From Bacteroides sp. (GTDB taxonomy: Bacteria > Bacteroidota > Bacteroidia > Bacteroidales > Bacteroidaceae): 64,000 nt of DNA. Location of the stretch: assembly GCA_017466635.1 (NCBI GenBank), contig JAFTTU010000050.1, positions 8,690 to 72,689 on the forward strand, given 5' to 3'. This document shows, in pieces, positions 24,821 through 41,209 of this stretch (the stretch's first letter is position 1; each line of letters opens with the position of its first letter). Made by a program: the position numbers and the translations under genes. Below the pieces are notes generated by a model. The model saw only the letters and a program-made list of their open reading frames with translations. It was not told the origin of the DNA and made no database searches.

Positions 24821-26995
24821 CTATATCTCTTGTCTCTTAATCATCTCCGCAAAAAGCCCGCCTTTTTCCTTCAACGCCTCGTAAGTCCCTTCTTCGGCAA
24901 TGCGTCCTTTGTCGAGCACAATGATGCGGTCGCAATGACGGATGGTGCTGAGACGATGGGCAATGACTACACGGGTACATCCCATCTTGTCCAGATTGTC
25001 GGACACCATCTTCTGACTGACATTGTCCAAGGCACTGGTAGCCTCATCGAAGAACAGGATGGAAGGCTTGTTGAGCAAGGCACGGGCGATGAGCAAACGT
25101 TGTTTCTGTCCACCACTGAAACCGCCTCCACCTTCGCTGACAAGGGTGTTCATTCCCATCGGAAGAGCTTCGATATCCTTGTCGATACCTGCCAAACGAG
25201 CGGCTTCCCATGCATCATCCCGTGAACTCCATGGTGCGGTAATGGTAATATTACTGAACACATCACCCGGGAAAAGGCTTCCACTCTGCAAACATGTACC
25301 TATTTTCTGGCGCAAGCTGCTCTTGTCTACCTCATTCAAATCATAGTCGTCGTAATAAACGGCTCCCATTTGCGGCGTCTCGAAGCCCAACATCAAGCGC
25401 ATCAAGGTACTTTTCCCACAACCGGATTTTCCTACGATTGCCACATATTCTCCCGGATGGAATTTCAGTGATACATCATCCAGAATCCAAGGCGTATCTT
25501 CCGAATAGCGGAAAGACAAATGGCTGATTTCGATGGCCCCACTCAAGAACTGCACCTGTTTGGATTTTTCATCCACTTCGGGCACAGCTTCCATGATAGG
25601 CTTGGCCTGTTTCAACAAAGGCTCCATGCGCGAGAGTTGGGGAGCAATCCCAATCAAGGCGGTAAATGCACCACTTACCATTCCGTATGCAGCCGTAAAA
25701 GCGATGAAGTCGGAAGGAGAAACCTGACTCTTTACGGCCGTAAAGTAAATGTATGCCATCCCACCCAAGTTAAGCAATACCATCAAGGCACCCGAAAGTT
25801 TCAGCAACAAAGGAGGATTGAATTCCAGGCGGGCATTCTCCCGATACGTCTGCAACCATCGGGTAAAGGCACGCTTTTCAGAGCCTGTCAGCTTGATTTT
25901 CTGCACACCGTTGATGAGGTCGAATATCAGGGAAGTCAACTTGGCAGAAACAGCGATAATCTGCTTGTCCTGCTTCCGTTGAAACCAAAGCATCGCCAGT
26001 GTCAACAAGAATTGCCCGAAGATGATGGTCATCCCCGGCATCATCAAGGATTGGGCATAACTCTTCATCTGAAAGACATATACGATGGAAAATACAGCTG
26101 TAATGGAAGTACTTACCAACATATCGTTCGCCAAGTCGCACAAACGGCCTACACTCATAATGCGCTCGTTCAGTTCACCCGATGCATACTTCATGAAAAA
26201 CTTTGCCTTGAGCAAGAATGTACGTGCCATGACGGCAGGTTCTATCCGCACACTGACCAATTCCTTCAGACGCTTCAACATCCAGTCACGTATCAAATTG
26301 AAGAGAATGTCACCGATGGTCGCCCCTATCAGCAATGCCGCCACCGGAAGGATATCGCTTTTCGTACCGCTCGGTATCACGGTATCGAACATCTGTTTGT
26401 TCACGTAAGGAACCAACATCCCCATGACCGCAATCAAGCCGGAAACAAGAAACAACCGGACAATGTCTTTTGCATTGAACGACTTGGCCATGAATGCGAG
26501 CAAATCGCCCATTCCTATTTTCCGCATGGGCAATGCCGGATAGAAACAGAGGGCTTCGGGTTTCAAGTCCTTTTTCATGCGTTTGGAAGTCACCTCCACT
26601 CGAAGACCTTCCTTATTAATATAGGTATAGGAGGCTTTCATACGCGTCGGTATCAAGGCTACCCATTTGCCTTCCCGGTCATAGCCCAACATCGGCCCTA
26701 CAGCCATCTTCCACCACTTGCCTTTCAGCTCCACCCGGCGGTACATGATTCCCCTCGGATTCAGAATCTGAGCCAACTGCTCTTCCATCGTGAGGAAAGG
26801 ATTCTCTTCGTCCAACTCGAAGTCATCCACGATGTCCAGTGCGGCAAGCACCTCCCTCACCGCATGACTTCCGGAAGCCGCTTTGCCCTTCAAGGCCGAC
26901 TGCAAGCCCACTTCCTCCACAAACTGCCCGACCGCCTCATGCAAGTGCTGCTGCTCTTGCTCCAGTCTTTTGTCTATTTGCTCCTTGAATAACAT
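24821..26995 (-). CDS. NHLP/NHLM bacteriocin-system ABC transporter, non-proteolytic subunit
   Basis: N-terminal domain with R.V.L...WW...GPML but no QxxxxCG; ABC membrane domain; GKSGCGKST, FSGGQKQR, DEATSALDN. Confidence 0.85.
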   Translation of the reverse strand: MLFKEQIDKRLEQEQQHLHEAVGQFVEEVGLQSALKGKAASGSHAVREVLAALDIVDDFELDEENPFLTMEEQLAQILNPRGIMYRRVELKGKWWKMAVGPMLGYDREGKWVALIPTRMKASYTYINKEGLRVEVTSKRMKKDLKPEALCFYPALPMRKIGMGDLLAFMAKSFNAKDIVRLFLVSGLIAVMGMLVPYVNKQMFDTVIPSGTKSDILPVAALLIGATIGDILFNLIRDWMLKRLKELVSVRIEPAVMARTFLLKAKFFMKYASGELNERIMSVGRLCDLANDMLVSTSITAVFSIVYVFQMKSYAQSLMMPGMTIIFGQFLLTLAMLWFQRKQDKQIIAVSAKLTSLIFDLINGVQKIKLTGSEKRAFTRWLQTYRENARLEFNPPLLLKLSGALMVLLNLGGMAYIYFTAVKSQVSPSDFIAFTAAYGMVSGAFTALIGIAPQLSRMEPLLKQAKPIMEAVPEVDEKSKQVQFLSGAIEISHLSFRYSEDTPWILDDVSLKFHPGEYVAIVGKSGCGKSTLMRLMLGFETPQMGAVYYDDYDLNEVDKSSLRQKIGTCLQSGSLFPGDVFSNITITAPWSSRDDAWEAARLAGIDKDIEALPMGMNTLVSEGGGGFSGGQKQRLLIARALLNKPSILFFDEATSALDNVSQKMVSDNLDKMGCTRVVIAHRLSTIRHCDRIIVLDKGRIAEEGTYEALKEKGGLFAEMIKRQEI

Positions 26996-26998
26996 AAC

Positions 26999-29134
26999 TT
27001 AATCACATGCCACCAATTGTTTATACACGCCATCCTTCTCCAACAACTCCTGATGAGTTCCTCTTTCTACCACTTCACCCTTTTCCAATACCACAATTTC
27101 ATCACAATCGCGGATGGTACTAAGTCGGTGGGCTATCACTATCAACGTCACCCCCATCATGCGGATGGAGTCCATGATACGTTTTTCGGTTTCTGCATCC
27201 AAGGCACTGGTTGCTTCATCCATGATGAGGATGACCGGCTCGCGTGCCAAGGCTGCAGCTATCTCAATACGCTGCAACTGACCTCCCGAAAAGTTCTTTC
27301 CGCCCTTCACCAAACGGGTATTGAAACCTTCCGGACGCGACACCACATCTTCCCGTATCTGGGCATCCCGACAAGCCAATACCATGGCAAAATCTTCGAT
27401 GGAGGAATCCCACATCTTGATGTTGGCCATGATGGTATCGTCAAACATCACCACATTCTGGTCAATCATGGCTATCGAATTCGTGAATTCATCGTCATTG
27501 ATTTCTTGGCGGTATCTTCCGTCGAACAGAATTTCACCTTCCCAAGGTTGATACAAACCCGTAATCAACTTGGCTAATGTACTTTTACCGCATCCCGATG
27601 TGCCCACAAATGCCACACTCTTGCCCGGTTCTACCGTCATGGAGAAATTCTTGATTTGCGGTTGGGAGAAGCTGTTGTAGCCAAAGGATACATTCTTCAA
27701 CTCGATACGTCCACGCAATTTTCCACTTCCGTCCTGTCTTGCTTCCGTACTCTGTTGTTGCACCGGATATTTCAGCACGTCTTCCACACGTTCCATCTGA
27801 GTACGCATCTCTATCATCATTTCCGTTGCCGAGAACAACTGTTGGGCAGGAGCCGTAAATCCCGTCATAAATCCTTGGAATGCCAACAGCATACCGATGG
27901 TAAACTGGCCGTCCATAATCATATAGGCTCCCAATAGCAGGATGGCATTACCCGTCAAGGCTTGCAACAACTCCGGCCAAATGCCATAAAGTTGGTCGCG
28001 ACGGTCGGCACGGGCTTCCGAATTGTGCATATTGGTAAAGTAACCCACCCAATGATTGAAGAAACCGTTTTCGGCACCGGCCGCCTTGATGGTTTCGATA
28101 TTGTCCAGGCATGACATCGTTACCCCATAGTACTTTCCCATGTCCCTTTCAAAGACACGGGTCACATCTACTCGCTTTGTTGATATATAACTGGCCAACC
28201 CAATATTCAGCAACATGGCACCCAAGCCTATCAATGTCAGCCAAACACTATAGCGGAGCATGAAAGTGAGATACAGCACCAACAACATCATTTGAATGGC
28301 CAATGGAGCCAACTGCTGCACCAATGTAGCTGCAATGTTCTGATTGGATTTCTGCCGGAGAATCAAATCACCCACATAGCGTTGGGAGAAGAAGTCCATC
28401 GGCAACCGCAGCAGATGCCAGAAGAAGTTGCTGTTGGCTTCAAGAGCCATGGCCGCATTGTACTTCCGGCTATAAATACCTTTCAACCATTCGGTCAATA
28501 CATTCACTCCTATCACCGCCACGAAAGCTGCCATGAAGGGCTTGAACCAATCCGGATTCTTGCCGCTCAAGATATCGTCCATGAATATTTGCGAGAACAA
28601 CGGAGTGGCTATCCCAACGATTGCCGCCAACAAGCCGGTCACAAAGATAAAGAAAGCAGCCGCCCGGGTATTCTTCAGTCTTCGCTTCACAAAGCCCAAA
28701 ATGGAAGCACGCGAACCTCCCGGCTGAAAAGATTTTGTAGGCTCAAACACCAAGGCAATGCCTGTAAAGGCCCTGTCGAATTCTTCTTGAGTAACTTTGA
28801 CCTTTCCTCGCCCCGGGTCATTCAAGTAATGGGTATTCCCCCTTTTCCCCTTGTATACTACAAAGTGGTTGAAGTTCCAATGGATGATGGCAGGAGTTTC
28901 TCCTTGCAGCTCGTCCTCATCCAGCTTATAGGCATTGGCTTCCATGCCGTAGCTTCGTCCAGCCAGAAGCAATTGCTTGGCAGAACAACCGTCACGCGAT
29001 ACGCCACAATCCTTTCGTAGCTGTTCCAACGGCAACCACTTCTTATGATAAGCCAGTACCATCCCCAGCGAAGCGGCTCCGCACTCCACCATCTCCATCT
29101 GCATGATGACCGGTACATTCTTGACTTTTCCCAT
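26999..29134 (-). CDS. NHLP/NHLM-type peptidase-containing ABC transporter (C39 + ABC)
   Basis: Intact C39 catalytic motifs QMEMVECGAASL, HWNFNHFVV, YLNDP; R..CGVSRDG signature; GTSGCGKST, FSGGQ.QR. Confidence 0.92.
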   Translation of the reverse strand: MGKVKNVPVIMQMEMVECGAASLGMVLAYHKKWLPLEQLRKDCGVSRDGCSAKQLLLAGRSYGMEANAYKLDEDELQGETPAIIHWNFNHFVVYKGKRGNTHYLNDPGRGKVKVTQEEFDRAFTGIALVFEPTKSFQPGGSRASILGFVKRRLKNTRAAAFFIFVTGLLAAIVGIATPLFSQIFMDDILSGKNPDWFKPFMAAFVAVIGVNVLTEWLKGIYSRKYNAAMALEANSNFFWHLLRLPMDFFSQRYVGDLILRQKSNQNIAATLVQQLAPLAIQMMLLVLYLTFMLRYSVWLTLIGLGAMLLNIGLASYISTKRVDVTRVFERDMGKYYGVTMSCLDNIETIKAAGAENGFFNHWVGYFTNMHNSEARADRRDQLYGIWPELLQALTGNAILLLGAYMIMDGQFTIGMLLAFQGFMTGFTAPAQQLFSATEMMIEMRTQMERVEDVLKYPVQQQSTEARQDGSGKLRGRIELKNVSFGYNSFSQPQIKNFSMTVEPGKSVAFVGTSGCGKSTLAKLITGLYQPWEGEILFDGRYRQEINDDEFTNSIAMIDQNVVMFDDTIMANIKMWDSSIEDFAMVLACRDAQIREDVVSRPEGFNTRLVKGGKNFSGGQLQRIEIAAALAREPVILIMDEATSALDAETEKRIMDSIRMMGVTLIVIAHRLSTIRDCDEIVVLEKGEVVERGTHQELLEKDGVYKQLVACD

Positions 29135-29142
29135 ACTTCGCT

Positions 29143-29967
29143 TTATTTGGATTGCCGGTTAAACAACAAGTCGAACACAGGACGATTGCGTGTCACAATC
29201 TGCAAGCTGCAAAACGTACCTATCTTCATATTGATGTTTTCTCCCGATTGATGCGACCAACGGATTTTGCTCTTGTCCGATGGATGATCTTCCAGCTTAA
29301 TTTGTACCATAAAGGCTGCTTCCGATGGAAATACCGCCGATGTAAATTCTTCCAATTTGAACAAGTTTTGCGCTTCCTTGGATGATGTAGGAAGTTCGTT
29401 GATGGCGGTAATGCGTCCATACATATAGCCCACTTCCTCCCGCTTCAAATCGCTTGGGGTGGCTTGTACTTCCATCCCCACTTTCAGTTTGCGCAAGTCG
29501 GCATAAGTCACAAAAGCAATCATTTCCTTCAATTGGTTCACTTGGTCGTGTGGAAGCAGATAAACACAAGGCTCCAATGCACTGAACGATTCCTGCTGCA
29601 CCTTGTGAGAAAGCACAACACCCGAATGAGTGCTTCTCAATTCGCGAACAGCATCTTCCGATGTATAACGGAACAAGATGTCTCCCTTCTTTACTTCATC
29701 GCCTTTCTGGACGAAGACTTCCGTAATCCGCCCGTCGAGCGAAGCAGATACATGCATGATTTCCTGATGAGGGAAGGCTATGCCATTGATTTTCACAAAA
29801 TCGCTGATGGTGCTATTGAATGCCCAGACACAGGCAGCAACGACACATAGCAGGATGCTTGTCAACCAAAGATAAAACGAAGGTCCTGTCACCCGGATAT
29901 AGTCACTGATTTTATCCGGAGACTCCAATGTATCCATCGCCTGTTGGCGGAAAAGTTTGTTTCCCAT
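29143..29967 (-). CDS. NHLP-system secretion accessory protein (short HlyD-like, no alpha-hairpin)
   Basis: LFRQQA...LESPD N-terminus, single TM, adjacent lipoyl half-motifs, YG.I and P..LLF C-terminal motifs. Confidence 0.8.
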   Translation of the reverse strand: MGNKLFRQQAMDTLESPDKISDYIRVTGPSFYLWLTSILLCVVAACVWAFNSTISDFVKINGIAFPHQEIMHVSASLDGRITEVFVQKGDEVKKGDILFRYTSEDAVRELRSTHSGVVLSHKVQQESFSALEPCVYLLPHDQVNQLKEMIAFVTYADLRKLKVGMEVQATPSDLKREEVGYMYGRITAINELPTSSKEAQNLFKLEEFTSAVFPSEAAFMVQIKLEDHPSDKSKIRWSHQSGENINMKIGTFCSLQIVTRNRPVFDLLFNRQSK

Positions 29968-29983: not shown

Positions 29984-30826
29984 TTATGATTGGATTCTTA
30001 CAGTAACATTCATGCCTTCCATCAAGCCGACGTTTCCTTTCACCCGGGCACGAACCTGAATCAATCCCTTTTCATCTACCAAAGGGTTCATGCTACAGAT
30101 TTCCCCCTGTTGCACTCCTACCGTGGTAGCTTGCGGAACGATTTCTACCTTTTGTCCCATCTTGATGAGGTGAAGTTCGTTCTCCAACACCTGGAATTCC
30201 ACTTCCATGTTGCTTGTCTGGATGATACGGCAAAAAGGCTCACTGCTGCCTGCCATGTGATGAGGCTTGGCGGTGAGGTTGGCTATCACCCCATCGAAAG
30301 GAGCGACCAATGTAGCATTTTCTATTTCTCTCAAAGCATTTTCCTTCTGAAGAGCAGCTTGTTCGTAACCGCTCTTCACCTTGGCAAGTTTCATCATGTC
30401 GGCAGGTACCTTATCCAAATGGTCAGGGTCATATCCTTGCCCTATCAGAATATCCTGAAGTTCAAGTTTGGCTTGTTCAAGGCTGATTTCGGCTTGACGC
30501 AACTGGCTGTTCAAGGCAAACACTTCCAAATCCGCCAACTTCTGTCCCTTGCCTACTCTAGCCCCGTTCTTCACATAGACATGGGCTATCTGTTCTTGCG
30601 AACGGAAATACAGGTCGGTATAATTGGCTGCTTTTACTTTTCCGGTAGCGGTCAGGCTATTGCTTGGAAGTTCTTTCACTTCGGGCTTGACTTCAGACAC
30701 CACTTCTTCCTGCACATCAACCGGTGTAGTTACCGGCTCTTGCGAAGTGGTAGCTTGCTGACTATTGGTGCTGCATGATGTCATGACCAAGCACACAGTG
30801 GCTAATATAAGGTGTTTTCTTTTCAT
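29984..30826 (-). CDS. Efflux periplasmic adaptor (MFP) lipoprotein
   Basis: Lipobox VMTSC, V.NG..V.KGQ.LA lipoyl motif, alpha-hairpin, APFDGVI, beta-barrel. Confidence 0.85.
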   Translation of the reverse strand: MKRKHLILATVCLVMTSCSTNSQQATTSQEPVTTPVDVQEEVVSEVKPEVKELPSNSLTATGKVKAANYTDLYFRSQEQIAHVYVKNGARVGKGQKLADLEVFALNSQLRQAEISLEQAKLELQDILIGQGYDPDHLDKVPADMMKLAKVKSGYEQAALQKENALREIENATLVAPFDGVIANLTAKPHHMAGSSEPFCRIIQTSNMEVEFQVLENELHLIKMGQKVEIVPQATTVGVQQGEICSMNPLVDEKGLIQVRARVKGNVGLMEGMNVTVRIQS

Positions 30827-30843
30827 AGATTTATTTCTGATGA

Positions 30844-30880
30844 CAAAGGTAAACTTTTTTAGGAATAATCACTATCTTTG
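30844..30880. promoter_or_regulatory. Divergent Bacteroidetes -7 promoter elements (exporter operon and GNAT)
   Basis: TACCTTTG on the - strand at 30844-30851 and TATCTTTG on the + strand at 30873-30880, each ~20 nt from a start codon. Confidence 0.65.
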
Positions 30881-30900
30881 TGACAAAAAAAAACAAGAAC

Positions 30901-31800
30901 ATGGAAACAAATCGCTATACCATCCTTCCTCATACAGCCATCCACCGAGATACGGACGACCTGAATGTGGATTTCTACCTTGACTTGACAGGAGGAAAAC
31001 AAAGCATTGTCTTCGGTCATCCCGAGGATGGATACTTGTTCATTGCCCCGAAAGAGAAACGATGGGCAGTGCGCCATATCTATGTTCTTCCTCATCGTCG
31101 AAATCAAGGTCTTTCGCGTGCTTTGCTCGATGCTGCCGCCCTCTATTGCAAGGATCAGCGAGTGGATTTCATGGTATATCTCACGTACAACAATGATTAC
31201 ACCCACAGATTTCTCGACCGCTATGTACATGAGCGAGGAATGACACCGTGCGTCCCTACCCGACTCTTCATTTTCGAAGACCATAGCTTTTTCCAAAGCC
31301 CCGAATGGCAAAAGACGATGCAACGAATGCAACTCATGACCGAACGGTGGGAAGCCAAAGGAGCCGTAACTGCTCACTTCGATGAATGTCCTGACGAGGT
31401 ATTGGAAAACCTTAAGGCTCTATACTATGAGACAGATGAAGAAAACTATCAAGTGGCAAGCGACATCTGGCCGTTCATCCCCGACCGATACGAGCCGTTG
31501 AGCTTCATTACCTATAAAGAAAACGAACCGATGACTTTTGTCTTCAGTCAACGGTTCGGCAACAGTATTTTGTTTTCAGGCAACCTTGCCTTGAAAAAAT
31601 ATCAGCATAATGGCTGTTTCATCCTCCCTCTCTATCGCTTCATCCAAAGCATAGCAGAAGACACCAGCATAGAGCGCATGACTTGCAAGATAGTGGGTTC
31701 CAATCACGAGGCAGTTCAATTGGCAGAGAATCTATGGTCACAAGCCAAACCTCGCTTTGTGAAGATGCAGGTGTTCGCTCATTTCGTGGAAGAGGAGTAA
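30901..31800 (+). CDS. Tandem GNAT-fold acetyltransferase-like protein
   Basis: Motif A IYVLPHRRNQGLSRALL; second degenerate module LALKKYQHNG ... SNHEAVQL. Confidence 0.7.
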   Translation: METNRYTILPHTAIHRDTDDLNVDFYLDLTGGKQSIVFGHPEDGYLFIAPKEKRWAVRHIYVLPHRRNQGLSRALLDAAALYCKDQRVDFMVYLTYNNDYTHRFLDRYVHERGMTPCVPTRLFIFEDHSFFQSPEWQKTMQRMQLMTERWEAKGAVTAHFDECPDEVLENLKALYYETDEENYQVASDIWPFIPDRYEPLSFITYKENEPMTFVFSQRFGNSILFSGNLALKKYQHNGCFILPLYRFIQSIAEDTSIERMTCKIVGSNHEAVQLAENLWSQAKPRFVKMQVFAHFVEEE

Positions 31801-32433: not shown

Positions 32434-32573
32434 AACCATACATTTTCAAGATTAACAATGAGACAAATGTAGGCAATAAATATAAACAAAACAACATTTA
32501 TTCAATTTTTTTCATATATTTGCAAAAGAACGTTTTTGATATTATTGTTGAAAAACTTATCATACGAATGCCT

Positions 32574-33866
32574 ATGTTAACCAAATTGTTCGGGTTCAAT
32601 CCCAAAGAAACGACCATCCGCACGGAAATCTTTGCGGGTATTACGACTTTCCTCACCATGTCGTACATCTTGGCGGTCAATCCAGCCATGTTCAGTGTGC
32701 TCGACGGTATGCCTGCCGGAGCTGCCTTTACTGCTACCGCCTTGGCTGCTGTCATCGGTACGCTCACCATGGCTTTTTGGGCCAAACTTCCTTTCGGTCT
32801 TGCTCCCGGTATGGGACTGAATGCCTTCTTTGTCTATACGGTTTGTCTGGGGATGGGTTATCCTTGGCAATTCGCACTTACCGCCGTACTGATTGAGGGC
32901 TTAATCTTCATCCTGCTTACGGTGACGAAAATGCGCGAAGCCATCGTCAATGCCATTCCGCTCAACCTGCGTTATGCCATCGGTGCAGGTATCGGTTTAT
33001 TCATTGCCTTCATCGGTTTACAGAATGCCGGAGTAGTGGTCAATAGTGATGCTACCCTGATTGTATTGGGTGATATCACAACCGGGCCTGCTTTGCTAGC
33101 CATGGTGGGACTTATCATCACGGGATTCCTCTATGCCAAGAACGTGCCAGGTGCCATGCTTATCGGCATCATGGCGACAACACTCATTGGCATCCCGATG
33201 GGGATCACTGAATTCAAGGGAGTATTCTCACAACCTCAATCCATTGCGGACATTTTCTGTCAATTCCAGTGGGATAATATCTTTACGATGGATATGCTGA
33301 TAGTGGTATTCACCATGTTGTTCATGGACTTGTTCGATACGGTAGGTTCGCTAGTCGGGGTATGTACCAAATCGGGGATGATTAACAAGGATGGTAGCAT
33401 CAGCCGTATCAACGAGGCATTTATGGCAGATGCCATTGCCACTACGGCAGGGGCTTGTCTAGGTACTTGTACCACGACGACTTACGTAGAAAGCGCTTCA
33501 GGAGTGGCTATCGGTGGACGTTCGGGACTCACCGCCTTTGTGGTGGTTTGTTGCTTCATCATTTCCTTGTTTCTGTCACCACTCTTCCTGTCCATCCCAT
33601 CGGCAGCTACAGCACCGGTACTGATTATTGTCGGTCTGTTCATGTTGGAGCCTGTGCGTCGGATTGACTTCAGCGACTATACGGAATCCATTCCTGCCTT
33701 TGTGTGTATCATTACCATTCCGTTGGCTTACTCCATCTCCGATGGTATTCTGCTCAGCGTCATCTGTTATGTGCTGATGAATGTGCTTTGCGGGAATTTC
33801 AAGAAACTCACTCCGGCCATGTATATTCTGGCGGTGCTGTTCATCCTGAAGTATTTGTTTATTTGA
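32574..33866 (+). CDS. NCS2/AzgA family nucleobase (purine) permease, accessory copy
   Basis: AGITTFLTMSYILAVNP, APGMGLNAFF, YVESASGV..GGRSGLTA; likely start 32574. Confidence 0.92.
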   Translation: MLTKLFGFNPKETTIRTEIFAGITTFLTMSYILAVNPAMFSVLDGMPAGAAFTATALAAVIGTLTMAFWAKLPFGLAPGMGLNAFFVYTVCLGMGYPWQFALTAVLIEGLIFILLTVTKMREAIVNAIPLNLRYAIGAGIGLFIAFIGLQNAGVVVNSDATLIVLGDITTGPALLAMVGLIITGFLYAKNVPGAMLIGIMATTLIGIPMGITEFKGVFSQPQSIADIFCQFQWDNIFTMDMLIVVFTMLFMDLFDTVGSLVGVCTKSGMINKDGSISRINEAFMADAIATTAGACLGTCTTTTYVESASGVAIGGRSGLTAFVVVCCFIISLFLSPLFLSIPSAATAPVLIIVGLFMLEPVRRIDFSDYTESIPAFVCIITIPLAYSISDGILLSVICYVLMNVLCGNFKKLTPAMYILAVLFILKYLFI

Positions 33867-34580: not shown

Positions 34581-34737
34581 AATTCAGATTAGATTAAATC
34601 GTTGAATGCACAAATATAGTCTTTTTTTGAGAAAAAGACTATATTATTTGGTTAATTTTTCTCACACCAATCAATATATAATAGCTTGTCATAGAAACTC
34701 CCTATCCAGTATAAAAAAAACAAATCCTGCTTTCAGC

Positions 34738-34810
34738 CTTCAGACCTTTTGATTGTGAATGAGTTGTGCTGAAGGCAAGGTGGTTTCTGCCTTCAGTATG
34801 GCTTCATTAC
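34738..34810 (+). repeat. 73-bp repeat, copy 1 (inverted relative to 41121-41193)
   Basis: Ungapped hand alignment, 64/73 identical; internal ctgaaggca/tgccttcag hairpin. Confidence 0.85.
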
Positions 34811-34923
34811 ACATGTATAATTTTATGTCAAGCTCTTACTCAAGGAAAATAAACGGAATAATTGCTGTTTTCTAAAAAAAAGGCTACATTTGCGCATTCA
34901 TGTATTCAATATAATATATAGGT

Positions 34924-35186: not shown

Positions 35187-36614
35187 ATGAAAAATTTCTT
35201 CTACATATTGAAAACCTTGGACGTGAAGTGCAGCTTCGACTATACCCGTGACCTGTTCTTAGCACAAGAAAAGAACCATTCGTTGTGGGGTATCAAGAAG
35301 CTGTTGGAGCACTATGGCGTAAAAGTAACTCCCATCCTGTCCGAAGCGAAATCCATAGATGCTTTGGATTATCCGTTTGTGTGTCAAACGAAGGAAGGAA
35401 TGACGGCATTCACTCGTCCTCCGAAAGACATACCTGCTTTTCTCGAACAATGGGACGGTTATGCCTTGCTTTGCGATGCCTCCCATGCCAAGGAACCTCA
35501 TTATGTCTGGCACAAGTTGAAGGAATGTTTTGTGTATGGCTTACCATGGGCTACATTGGCAGGTGTCGTGCTTACCTCGCTTTGCTTCTTATGGGAGCCG
35601 TTCAGCCTTTCCCGATTGTTGCTTGTCCTGTTCAATGCTATGGGCTTCTATTTCAGTTACCGCTCGGCTGTGGGCGAGTGTGCTGGTAGTTGTAGCGTGG
35701 TGACAGAATCACCGGCCGGCAAGCTTTTCGGTTATAGTTTGAGTGTGATAGGCGTGGCATATTTCGGTGTGTCGTTACTACCCACCTTGTTCATTCCTGC
35801 ATGGATGCACGTGTGGAATTGGATAGCCATCGTTGCATTGCTGATGCCTGTATGGAGCATTGCCCATCAGGCATTCGTACTTCATGCCTGGTGCAAGAAT
35901 TGCATGGTGGTACAGCTGATGGTCATTTTGTCAGCTATCGTAGTCATGACCGGGGACTTCTGCTCATGGGAAACCTTTTCGGTGCAATCTCTTGTTGCCT
36001 TGCCTTCATTCTATCTGTTGGCCGTTTATTTGTTGGACATGGCTTTCAATCATTATAAGATTGTCCAGCACCCCCCAATGGACGGTACAGTACTCCGGTT
36101 GATGCACAATCCCGTGCTTCGCGAAGAAATCCTCCGTTCGGGCAAAAAGGTCGATGCGTCCGAAGTGCCTGATGTGTGGGTGATGAATCCGGAAGGAAAA
36201 GAGGAATTGTTCCTCGCCATCAGCTTGCATTGTGTCCATTGCAAGGAACAGTTCTTCAAGCTTTATAAGGCGATGGAGAAAGGGGAACTGAAAATGTACC
36301 GCATTCGCATAGCCATCAGTCCTTCGCCTCAAGCTGCCAAGGTAATAGAGGCATTGGCAGCTACAGCCATACACGAAAGCATGGAAAAAGCCATCCGCCT
36401 ATTGGCCGAATGGTATGAAACGCAAAACCGCAAGCTGTTCCTTATGTCGGTCAAGAAGAACTTACCGATGGAGGGAGTGAAGGAAGTGTTGGACAGTATG
36501 AACAAGGCGGTAGAACGTTTGGACATAAACGGATTGCCAGCTATGTCGTTGGGCGGTTATGAAATAACCCCTACCATTTTCTGGGCAAAGGTAGAATGGG
36601 ATAGCTTGTCATAA
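35187..36614 (+). CDS. Fusion of inactive C39-like domain, VKOR domain and thioredoxin/DsbA-like domain
   Basis: SLWGIKKLLEHYGV and F.EQWDGYALL (C39-like scaffold without catalytic motif); VKOR ECAGSCSVVTES and WCKNC; Trx CVHC and INGLP. Confidence 0.82.
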   Translation: MKNFFYILKTLDVKCSFDYTRDLFLAQEKNHSLWGIKKLLEHYGVKVTPILSEAKSIDALDYPFVCQTKEGMTAFTRPPKDIPAFLEQWDGYALLCDASHAKEPHYVWHKLKECFVYGLPWATLAGVVLTSLCFLWEPFSLSRLLLVLFNAMGFYFSYRSAVGECAGSCSVVTESPAGKLFGYSLSVIGVAYFGVSLLPTLFIPAWMHVWNWIAIVALLMPVWSIAHQAFVLHAWCKNCMVVQLMVILSAIVVMTGDFCSWETFSVQSLVALPSFYLLAVYLLDMAFNHYKIVQHPPMDGTVLRLMHNPVLREEILRSGKKVDASEVPDVWVMNPEGKEELFLAISLHCVHCKEQFFKLYKAMEKGELKMYRIRIAISPSPQAAKVIEALAATAIHESMEKAIRLLAEWYETQNRKLFLMSVKKNLPMEGVKEVLDSMNKAVERLDINGLPAMSLGGYEITPTIFWAKVEWDSLS

Positions 36615-36621
36615 TCCCTTT

Positions 36622-37236
36622 TTACTCTTGAACAAGCCGATAGAATACATGTGGAACTCTTCCTTCGCGCTTGATTTTCTCCTCCATATACCATTGGCGG
36701 AGTTCAGCGGAAGCCTTGTTTTTCAGCAAGCCGGTTAGCTCGGCATATTTCTTGCAGGTAATGAAACCGTTTTCCTTCAAATGAGCAATCAATAGTTGGA
36801 AGCGCTCTTCCGGTGTGTATTCATCGGATGAAGTCTGGAATGCACGATGAGGCTCCACTCTTTCCAATTTCATTTGCATGCCTATCTTTTTCCGCAAGGT
36901 CTTGCTTGCCTTGAAGTTCACATTGTTGAAACGGATGGACTTGGAGCGTATTTCGTCCTTTTCTTTCACCTTTCGGCTGGTGAGGCTAGCCGAGAAAGTT
37001 CCGATTTCGCCCAACTTCACGTGATACCCTTCTGCAAGATACTCCGCTATGGTATCTTCCAGAAACATGACAACTCCCTGTACGATGGCAGGATTGAACC
37101 CCGTATGATGCGAAGCCCGCTCCATCAAATCCTTCATGGTCTTGGTACCCGAAATCACCAATTGAGGATAAAGTTCCTGCTCTCCCTCCTTGCCCTGCAA
37201 GTTGGGCAACACTCTGAGGTCATACTTTGCTTTCAT
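36622..37236 (-). CDS. Bacteroidetes HU-related DNA-binding protein with C-terminal winged-helix-like domain
   Basis: L.EGYHVKLGEIGTFS and VNFKAS HU-like motifs; GFIT...YAELTGL...A..EL helix-turn-helix tail. Confidence 0.8.
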   Translation of the reverse strand: MKAKYDLRVLPNLQGKEGEQELYPQLVISGTKTMKDLMERASHHTGFNPAIVQGVVMFLEDTIAEYLAEGYHVKLGEIGTFSASLTSRKVKEKDEIRSKSIRFNNVNFKASKTLRKKIGMQMKLERVEPHRAFQTSSDEYTPEERFQLLIAHLKENGFITCKKYAELTGLLKNKASAELRQWYMEEKIKREGRVPHVFYRLVQE

Positions 37237-40967: not shown

Positions 40968-41120
40968 TCAAAAGATTATTACCGAATACAAAATTACTTA
41001 AAAAGGTCAAATGTAATTTACTATTTCATTATATTTGTAGTTAAAATTCTCTTTTTTATGGAAAAAAAAGCACAATATCGGAGACTATTCATCCACATGG
41101 CGCTGATATTTAAACTGAAT

Positions 41121-41193
41121 GCAATGAAACCAAGCTGAAGGCAGAGACCACCCTGTCTTCAGCACAACTCATTCACAATCAATAAGTCTGAAG
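41121..41193 (-). repeat. 73-bp repeat, copy 2
   Basis: Reverse complement matches 34738-34810 at 64/73 positions. Confidence 0.85.
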
Positions 41194-41209
41194 TCAGAAT
41201 CACTATAAT

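Follow-up and report, generated by a model that had tools for sequence, protein, structure and literature searches.

Why should a gene that begins 35 nt after a double-glycine peptide precursor encode a membrane protein that joins a C39-like domain to a disulfide-forming relay, and on which side of the membrane would such a protein act? We addressed this question in a 64,000-nucleotide stretch of Bacteroides sp. DNA (GCA_017466635.1, contig JAFTTU010000050.1, positions 8,690 to 72,689 of the forward strand; referred to as the window, and used for all coordinates below). A sequence-only reading had described the gene at 35187-36614 (+) as a C39-like/VKOR/thioredoxin fusion, and had proposed that its inactive C39 domain recognises the double-glycine leader or the exporter and couples oxidation of the four core cysteines to export, making it the maturase of the cluster. 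We found that the observation itself holds. The open reading frame encodes 475 aa, and 35187 is the first start codon after an in-frame stop. The precursor gene P6 (34924-35151, +) ends 35 nt upstream, with no terminator-like site between the two. All the motifs described were present, namely ECAGSCSVVTES at residues 164-175, WCKNC at 235-239 and CVHC at 349-352. Across 150 relatives, C165, C169, S224, Q228, W235, C236, C349, C352, W409 and P451 are invariant, and C239 and S175 are conserved in at least 90%, which is not a chance pattern.

We next examined the fold of the protein. An AlphaFold model from the single sequence was of no use (pLDDT 41.5), and was replaced by an alignment-based AlphaFold2 model with a pLDDT of 94.3 and a pTM of 0.80. 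Similarly, a phmmer search of the PDB with the single protein found nothing useful, and a profile of the family was needed. NCBIfam has no dedicated model for this protein, the only hit being a weak one to a VKOR equivalog (24 bits against a cut-off of 120). Residues 1-105 (35187..35501, +) form the C39-like domain. Pfam Peptidase_C39 (PF03412) matched residues 7-70 at E 2.3e-4 (21.5 bits, just under the 22-bit cut-off), whereas the relative at locus L003, in Parabacteroides distasonis An897, scored 29.1 bits. The family profile hit residues 28-182 of the exporter PCAT1 at E 8.6e-10, the ComA peptidase domain at 5.5e-9 and LahT150 at 1.4e-5, and homology to the C39 domain is therefore supported. 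However, the Pfam match covered only profile positions 21-83, so the N-terminal helix with the catalytic Cys (Q-x(4-5)-C-G) is missing, and the protein begins after it. The position that aligns with the catalytic His of PCAT1 and of the window's own PCAT falls in a non-His or gapped stretch, and no Cys or His is conserved in the domain across the 150 sequences. The domain is thus catalytically dead, as the sequence-only reading had stated. An hhalign comparison of alignment A1 with the N-terminus of the window's own PCAT gave only a weak match (probability 25%).

Residues 141-290 (35607..36056, +) comprise the VKOR core, TM1-TM4, together with a linker helix, TM5. Pfam VKOR (PF07884) matched residues 164-253 at E 4.5e-9 (37 bits, cut-off 27.5). 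The core carries the loop pair C165/C169 followed by S175, and C236-x-x-C239 at the start of TM4. The four-helix bundle (model range 137-263) superposed on human VKOR and the Takifugu VKOR-like protein with Z 12.4-12.9 and rmsd 2.5-3.0 A over 121-125 residues; since a Z of about 13 is near the level that helical bundles can reach by chance, this assignment rests on the sequence match as well. The C-terminal domain, residues 295-475 (36069..36611, +), required one refinement of the earlier description, since it is DsbA-like, a Trx fold with an inserted helical domain, and not a plain thioredoxin. It matched ScsC, BdbD and BcfH with Z 15-16 and rmsd 3.0-3.5 A over 149-156 residues, and Foldseek returned DsbA, BdbD and MdbA (probability 1.00). 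It carries C349-V-H-C352 and the cis-Pro loop residue P451, and a His at the second position of the dipeptide, as in DsbA/PDI, recurs in most close relatives. No Trx-family Pfam hit was obtained for this protein at E <= 0.1, although distant relatives carry PF13462 (Thioredoxin_4) and the family profile hit DsbA and DsbC chains.

We then asked whether the surroundings of the gene indicate a substrate. Seven precursors of one family are encoded around it: P1 (32015..32212, -), P2 (32221..32439, -), P3 (33925..34119, -), P4 (34153..34353, -), P5 (34371..34580, -), P6 and P7 (37455..37646, -), with invariant C-x8-C-x(4-7)-C-x-W-x(4-6)-C. The P6 leader ends in VTGG and is followed by a four-Cys core. 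A TACATTTG motif (Bacteroides -7 type) lies at 34885-34892, and P6 is probably co-transcribed with the fusion gene. The cluster also encodes an NHLP-type export system. The peptidase-ABC exporter (PCAT; 26999..29134, -) scored 905.7 bits to TIGR03796, over the 853.3 cut-off, matched Pfam C39 at 6.6e-36 and has an intact QxxxxxCG. The ABC partner subunit that lacks the peptidase (24821..26995, -) scored 693.5 bits to TIGR03797, just under its 709.4 cut-off. A 274-aa HlyD-type adaptor (29143..29967, -), also identified by Pfam and syntenic in L003 and locus L076, gave a partial match to TIGR03794 (134, below 156), and a second membrane-fusion adaptor, a 280-aa lipoprotein (29984..30826, -), matched Pfam HlyD_D23 and TIGR01730. 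A 306-aa GNAT-like protein (30880..31800, +; Pfam Acetyltransf_1) is 31% identical to the 306-aa gene product encoded between the peptide and the oxidase in L003, with equivalents in loci L006 and L008. This conserved partner may have a role in tailoring or immunity, and its presence shows that other maturation or immunity steps exist, so that the fusion protein may not be the only maturase.

Close homologues of the gene lie in the same cluster of peptide, GNAT-like gene, oxidase, HlyD and PCAT, with the same peptide family, in L003 and in loci L004, L005, L006 and L075. Distant homologues (about 20% identity, 510-560 aa) also lie beside peptides with 6-10 Cys and double-glycine leaders. A lack of enrichment near such peptides had been named beforehand as grounds for rejecting the proposal, and in a matched control across the phylum the result was in its favour: 6 of 10 loci with C39-like-type VKOR genes have a Cys-rich double-glycine peptide within 1.5 kb, against 0 of 19 loci with other VKOR types. 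The alternative that the protein is a general redox enzyme, for quinone-linked thiol oxidation or stress response, which only happens to lie near peptide genes, draws some support from close homologues (L076, L077, L002 and L008) with no family peptide in the DNA examined, and from two-domain relatives (C39-like plus VKOR) that sit with a thioredoxin in varied housekeeping contexts. In view of the specific enrichment of the three-domain type, its synteny with exporter genes in several genera and its position 35 nt after a precursor gene, we consider this very unlikely. Still less likely is a role in immunity, in which the protein would inactivate or sequester the peptides in the producer. No obvious immunity gene was identified in the cluster, but a complete, invariant oxidising relay is not needed for sequestration, and in the analogous bacteroidetocin system the oxidoreductase gave no protection when expressed in a sensitive strain (PMC6671954), although that is a different protein family.

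The bacteroidetocin (proposed class IIf) loci of Bacteroidales (Coyne et al. 2019, PMC6671954) share the same logic, with a double-glycine peptide with four Cys, a PCAT and a cluster-encoded thiol oxidoreductase whose deletion attenuates toxin activity. We tested whether the present protein belongs to that oxidoreductase family (EH214_03826/EH213_01843), and rejected the idea, since the gene next to bacteroidetocin A encodes a 171-aa AhpC-TSA/Thioredoxin_2 protein with no VKOR and no C39-like domain. By inspection, the Lys-rich cores found here share no motif with the hydrophobic 42-mers bacteroidetocin A and B, taken from the supplement of that paper. No five-TM protein is seen in the present cluster, and a GNAT-like partner is present instead. 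The bacteroidetocin oxidoreductase is therefore only a functional analogue.

The arrangement of helices bears on the side of the membrane at which the relay would act. An extra transmembrane helix, TM0 (residues 117-136; 35535..35594, +), precedes the VKOR core, giving six helices rather than the five of canonical fusions. DSSP assigned a helix at 106-136 followed by one at 141-161, and the mean hydropathy of TM0 across the family is 1.84. The added helix flips helix parity, and is predicted to place the C39-like domain, the VKOR active site and the DsbA-like domain on the same side of the membrane, a placement that rests on helix parity and not on measured geometry. The number of K+R residues on the active-site side versus the opposite side is 9.4 versus 1.2 on average, is larger on the active-site side in 150 of 150 relatives, and is 5 versus 0 in this protein. 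Nine canonical VKOR fusions of the same phylum show the opposite bias, with 4.3 K+R in the 20 residues before TM1 against 0.36 here, and 2.9 in loop 2-3 against 0.27. There is no signal peptide and no possible N-terminal extension, and the C39 domain, linker and TM0 align with the cytoplasmic C39 domain and the start of TM1 of PCAT1. In the two-domain sister clade, 5 of 5 loci examined have a 97-100 aa PF00085 thioredoxin with a WCPHC site upstream, 11-14 nt away in the four with exact coordinates; in the four loci checked (L021, L078-L080) an in-frame stop lies just upstream, so that a signal peptide is impossible. Taken together, these observations predict a relay that faces the cytoplasm. 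This is the only arrangement in which a leader-binding domain could meet an uncleaved leader.

The orientation nevertheless rests on prediction only, and human, rat and some viral VKORs break the positive-inside rule (bioRxiv 10.64898/2026.03.26.714578). Every bacterial VKOR tested so far is reported in the same source to face outward, and the fold and catalytic residues of our protein are those of the Synechococcus VKOR-Trx. It could therefore be a periplasmic oxidase, like all characterised bacterial VKOR-Trx/DsbA fusions, with the C39-like domain also in the periplasm or with TM0 not spanning the membrane, and with peptides or envelope proteins oxidised after they cross the inner membrane. 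This would require a 115-residue, K/R-rich N-terminal domain with no signal peptide to be moved across the membrane, and does not fit the reversed charge bias or the pairing of split relatives with a thioredoxin that cannot be exported. By then the PCAT would have removed the leader, leaving a periplasmic C39-like domain with nothing obvious to bind. We regard this alternative as unlikely, though it is the strongest of those considered. The earlier statement that VKOR-Trx fusions replace DsbB/DsbA needs correction in this context, since it describes outward-facing enzymes and this one is predicted to face inward.

What the C39-like domain binds is inferred. In exporters this fold binds double-glycine leaders, and the inactive C39-like domain of HlyB binds substrate without cutting it. 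A complex prediction of the whole enzyme with the P6 precursor, run without controls, scored 0.19-0.20 against a mark of 0.32, and cannot be taken as evidence either way. The two-domain sister clade keeps the C39-like domain without any double-glycine peptide within 3-10 kb, which may indicate that the domain does something other than bind a leader. One possibility is that it docks on the PCAT/ABC exporter in place of a peptidase domain, so that an inward-facing enzyme would oxidise peptides at the mouth of the transporter. The N-terminal module is homologous to the C39 domain, linker and TM1 of PCATs, and the exporter here is a heterodimer in which one subunit lacks the peptidase domain. However, the two-domain clade also has no local PCAT, and our data do not tell leader binding apart from exporter docking. 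As the sole role of the domain, docking remains doubtful.

We therefore favour, with a probability of roughly 0.55, the interpretation that the protein is a dedicated, self-contained disulfide oxidase for the four-Cys, double-glycine-leader peptides of this cluster. Sequence and fold show a complete electron relay, from the DsbA-like C349/C352 pair to the VKOR loop pair C165/C169, to the membrane pair C236/C239 and finally to membrane quinone, menaquinone in Bacteroidales being inferred. The placement of all three functional parts on the cytoplasmic side, as an inverted VKOR, is predicted. It is inferred that the dead C39-like domain, which in this view derives from the N-terminus of a PCAT exporter, holds the uncleaved leader or docks at the exporter, and that the core would be oxidised to two disulfides before the NHLP-type PCAT cuts the leader and exports the peptide. 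The rationale is also inferred: export through a PCAT, adaptor and outer-membrane channel would bypass the periplasm, leaving the cytoplasmic face of the membrane as the only place where an enzyme could oxidise these peptides. In line with such export, the relative L075 carries an OEP outer-membrane factor in the exporter operon. A reducing cytoplasm would work against disulfides unless hand-over to the exporter is fast, and the model assumes that a PCAT can pass a peptide with two disulfides. The interpretation offered by the sequence-only reading is thus partly supported, in that the three-domain architecture, the dead C39-like domain and the enrichment near peptides held, while leader or exporter binding and the coupling of oxidation to export remain inference.

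Individual elements of this protein have precedents. The Synechococcus VKOR-thioredoxin fusion (PDB 3KP9, 4NV2, 4NV5, 4NV6) and other bacterial VKOR-Trx/DsbA fusions have the same four-helix core with a loop Cys pair and membrane CxxC, a linker helix TM5 and a fused Trx-fold domain with CxxC, as a one-polypeptide replacement for DsbB plus DsbA. The present protein differs in its C39-like domain, TM0, reversed charge bias, DsbA-like partner domain with a helical insert, and genomic link to double-glycine peptides, which canonical VKOR loci lack. The inward-facing archaeal VKORs (ApVKORi of Aeropyrum pernix and Pyrobaculum VKORi; Hibender et al. 2017, PMC5845738, as cited in PMC13486548 / bioRxiv 10.64898/2026.03.26.714578 and PMC12453122) have catalytic cysteines that face the cytoplasm, the orientation predicted here. 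The archaeal enzyme, however, is a stand-alone VKOR of hyperthermophiles with general cytoplasmic disulfides, is not fused to a DsbA-like or C39-like domain, and is inverted without an added helix. The C39 domains of PCAT1 (4RY2/6V9Z), ComA (3K8U) and LahT150 (6MPZ) are homologous to the N-terminal domain, which lacks the catalytic Cys helix and His and is fused to an oxidoreductase instead of an ABC transporter. BdbA/BdbB for sublancin and PedC for pediocin are dedicated thiol-disulfide oxidoreductases encoded next to a Gram-positive bacteriocin and its exporter, but act outside the cytoplasmic membrane, are separate proteins and have no leader-recognition domain. Literature searches on VKOR together with C39 peptidases or bacteriocins, limited to open-access papers and preprints, found no paper on this fusion, and the Bacteroidales RiPP mining paper does not mention VKOR, thioredoxin or disulfides.

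Disulfide formation in bacteria is taught as an envelope process. It is about as likely as not that a large Bacteroidota family of natural inward-facing VKOR-DsbA relays, inverted by an added helix and tethered to a dead C39 leader-binding domain, makes disulfide bonds in leader-tagged peptides on the cytoplasmic face of the membrane before PCAT export. Such a leader-guided cytoplasmic disulfide maturase driven by membrane quinone would add a new way of maturing ribosomal peptides, would be the first bacterial VKOR shown to face inward, and would offer a compact natural tool for making disulfide-bonded peptides in a bacterial cytoplasm. The family, found in Bacteroidota, is large (2094 representative clusters at E < 1e-30) and is annotated only as 'C39 domain-containing' or 'VKOR family' protein, and its link to Cys-rich double-glycine peptides is therefore also a practical handle for mining new peptide toxins or signals in gut and soil Bacteroidota. 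For anaerobic Bacteroidales, which are predicted to lack the general disulfide machinery (PMC6671954), it would explain how disulfide-rich secreted peptides that never pass through the periplasm are made.

The ORF at 35187-36614 (+) encodes a protein of 475 aa, and its ATG is the first start codon after an in-frame stop. It begins 35 nt after the stop codon of P6 (34924-35151, +), which encodes a 75-aa precursor with a leader ending in VTGG. No terminator-like hairpin lies between the two genes, and a Bacteroides-type -7 motif (TACATTTG, 34885-34892) precedes P6, so that co-transcription is likely, although this is an inference from sequence. A Pfam search identified VKOR at residues 164-253 (E 4.5e-9, above the cut-off), along with a marginal match to Peptidase_C39 at residues 7-70 (21.5 bits against a cut-off of 22). 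The latter aligned to profile positions 21-83, a part of the profile that lies after the catalytic Cys helix. The sequence-only reading had described a C39-like domain without its catalytic motif, a VKOR loop Cys pair with a Ser, a membrane CxxC and a C-terminal CVHC, and all of these motifs are present. Its observation is confirmed.

A word-indexed search found about 45 close clusters (38-95% identity, mostly 470-480 aa), and a few at about 20% identity and about 540 aa that also carry PF13462. An exhaustive profile search returned 5415 representatives at E < 1e-3 and 2094 at E < 1e-30, and nearly all of the best 150 were full-length matches of 510-560 aa. These proteins come from Bacteroidota and are named in the sources only as 'cysteine peptidase family C39 domain-containing protein' or 'VKOR family protein'. 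In an alignment of 150 members, C165, C169, S224, Q228, W235, C236, C349, C352, W409 and P451 are invariant. The whole relay is therefore under selection, whereas no Cys or His is conserved in the N-terminal domain.

Using this alignment, we obtained an AlphaFold2 model with pLDDT 94.3 and pTM 0.80. Residues 317-475 of the model match DsbA-like proteins (ScsC, BdbD and BcfH) at Z 15-16, residues 137-263 match human and fish VKOR at Z about 12.9 and rmsd 2.5-2.9 A, and residues 138-475 match Synechococcus VKOR-Trx. The family profile hit residues 28-182 of PCAT1 (E 8.6e-10), as well as the peptidase domains of ComA and LahT, and the alignment to PCAT1 runs through the linker into the first transmembrane helix. 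The N-terminal module therefore looks like the front end of a PCAT (C39 domain, linker and TM1) that has lost its catalytic Cys and His.

The window holds seven precursors with double-glycine leaders and an invariant C-x8-C-x(4-7)-C-x-W-x(4-6)-C core, together with an NHLP-type PCAT (TIGR03796, above cut-off), its non-peptidase ABC partner, two adaptors and a GNAT-like gene of 306 aa (30880-31800). The peptide array is interrupted between P2 and P3 by a 448-aa permease gene, putatively for an NCS2/AzgA nucleobase permease, on the opposite strand (32520-33866, +), and an HU-HIG family DNA-binding protein (E 1.2e-34) is encoded convergently, right after the oxidase gene (36622-37236, -). A pair of 80-nt inverted repeats (34732-34811 and 41120-41199), 86% complementary, encloses 6.3 kb that holds P6, the oxidase gene, the HU-HIG gene, P7, a nucleoside hydrolase and an ABC importer. 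This may explain why P6 and the oxidase gene lie on the opposite strand to P1-P5.

In Parabacteroides distasonis An897 (locus L003) the same genes form one co-directional block of peptide, GNAT-like gene, oxidase, HlyD, PCAT and a second ABC. The GNAT-like protein there is 31% identical to that of the window, and a GNAT-like protein of about 300 aa lies between the exporter or peptide genes and the oxidase in several genera (L003:6980-7900, and the loci of further homologues at L006:6802-7728 and L008:4973-5869). Its role could be peptide acylation or immunity. Peptides of the family also lie beside the homologue in loci L004, L005, L006 and L075. In L075, which encodes a 55%-identical relative, the cluster also carries an AraC-type regulator and an OEP (TolC-like) outer-membrane factor, the latter in the exporter operon, between the peptides and the PCAT (L075:6390-10094), while no outer-membrane factor was seen in the part of the window that was read (about 16000-44000). 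Distant members lie next to unrelated double-glycine peptides with 6-10 Cys. In a Hanamia-like contig (L009:1684-17665), the three-domain gene sits beside three double-glycine peptides with 6-7 Cys, three TlpA/DsbH-like thioredoxin lipoproteins and a LanC-like gene, and this block is directly downstream of relaxase, NikA-like and primase genes, which suggests a mobilisable island.

As a matched control, we scanned all VKOR loci from a sample of 150 genomes of the phylum with a single script. A Cys-rich double-glycine ORF was present within 1.5 kb at 6 of 10 loci of the C39-like type, against 0 of 19 loci with other VKOR types. The chance of all six falling in the first group is about 4e-4, but three of the six come from one genus, so that this value overstates the independence of the observations. 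In the 2-Mb genome from which the window derives, the same loose pattern gave about 26 spurious hits. It also recovered the seven peptides of the cluster, an eighth member of the C-x8-C...C-x-W...C family on another contig (C138:4170-4409), and one unrelated double-glycine peptide, with a CxxC...C core, on a third contig (C68:15126-15371).

We then asked how the protein is placed in the membrane. DSSP and hydropathy indicated six membrane helices, namely TM0 (117-136) followed by the five helices of a VKOR-Trx fusion. Because TM0 precedes VKOR TM1, helix parity puts the C39-like domain on the same side as the Cys loop, the CxxC and the DsbA-like domain. Canonical VKOR fusions from the same phylum have an active-site side poor in K/R, and have a K/R-rich N-terminal tail (4.3 K+R in the last 20 residues) and K/R in loop 2-3 (2.9) and loop 4-5 (1.1). 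The C39-like family is the reverse, with 0.36, 0.27 and 0.09 on the side opposite the active site, and 3.9, 1.6 and 3.6 on the active-site side. When sequences were considered individually, the active-site side carried more K+R in 150 of 150 members (mean 9.4 against 1.2), and in the protein studied here the values are 5 against 0. In addition, the N-terminus is not a signal peptide and cannot be extended.

A further indication came from a very abundant sister clade (over 1000 clusters) of about 335-350 aa that has only the C39-like and VKOR parts. In 5 of 5 loci examined (L021, L074, L078, L079 and L080), the gene is preceded by one for a thioredoxin of 97-100 aa (PF00085 covering residues 3-94, active site WCPHC), which lies 11-14 nt upstream in the four loci with exact coordinates. 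In the four loci checked an in-frame stop lies just upstream, and this partner cannot be exported. In L078 and L079 the two-domain gene is followed by an overlapping, conserved small ORF of 46-56 aa. The clade sits in varied housekeeping contexts with no double-glycine peptide nearby. Together, the charge bias, the N-terminus and the split relatives predict that the relay faces the cytoplasm. Natural inward-facing VKORs are reported only for Crenarchaea, and the same source states that bacterial, plant and mammalian VKORs face outward.

We propose a mechanism in which the leader of the precursor would be held by the dead C39-like domain, or in which this domain would instead dock at the exporter. 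The DsbA-like CVHC would oxidise the four core Cys, and electrons would then pass to C165/C169, to C236/C239 and to menaquinone. The oxidised precursor would go to the NHLP-type PCAT, which would remove the leader and export the peptide. Of these elements, our analysis establishes only the presence and conservation of the relay and its genomic link to the peptides. The orientation is a prediction, while leader binding and coupling to export are inferred, and a complex prediction gave no verdict. The proposal of the sequence-only reading, that the inactive C39 domain recognises the leader or the exporter and couples oxidation of the core Cys to export, is supported in part.

The loci for bacteroidetocins share the logic of a four-Cys double-glycine peptide, a PCAT and an oxidoreductase whose deletion attenuates activity (PMC6671954). 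We retrieved a bacteroidetocin A locus and found that its oxidoreductase is a 171-aa AhpC-TSA/Trx_2 protein. It is therefore an analogue of the present enzyme, and not a relative. We found no paper describing a C39-VKOR fusion. The protein is a member of a large, essentially undescribed Bacteroidota family, in which elements that are individually known, a VKOR-DsbA relay, a pseudo-C39 domain and a (here predicted) inverted topology, are brought together. What is specific to this locus is a shortened C39-like domain, a distinct Lys-rich four-Cys peptide family, a conserved GNAT-like partner and an NHLP-type exporter.
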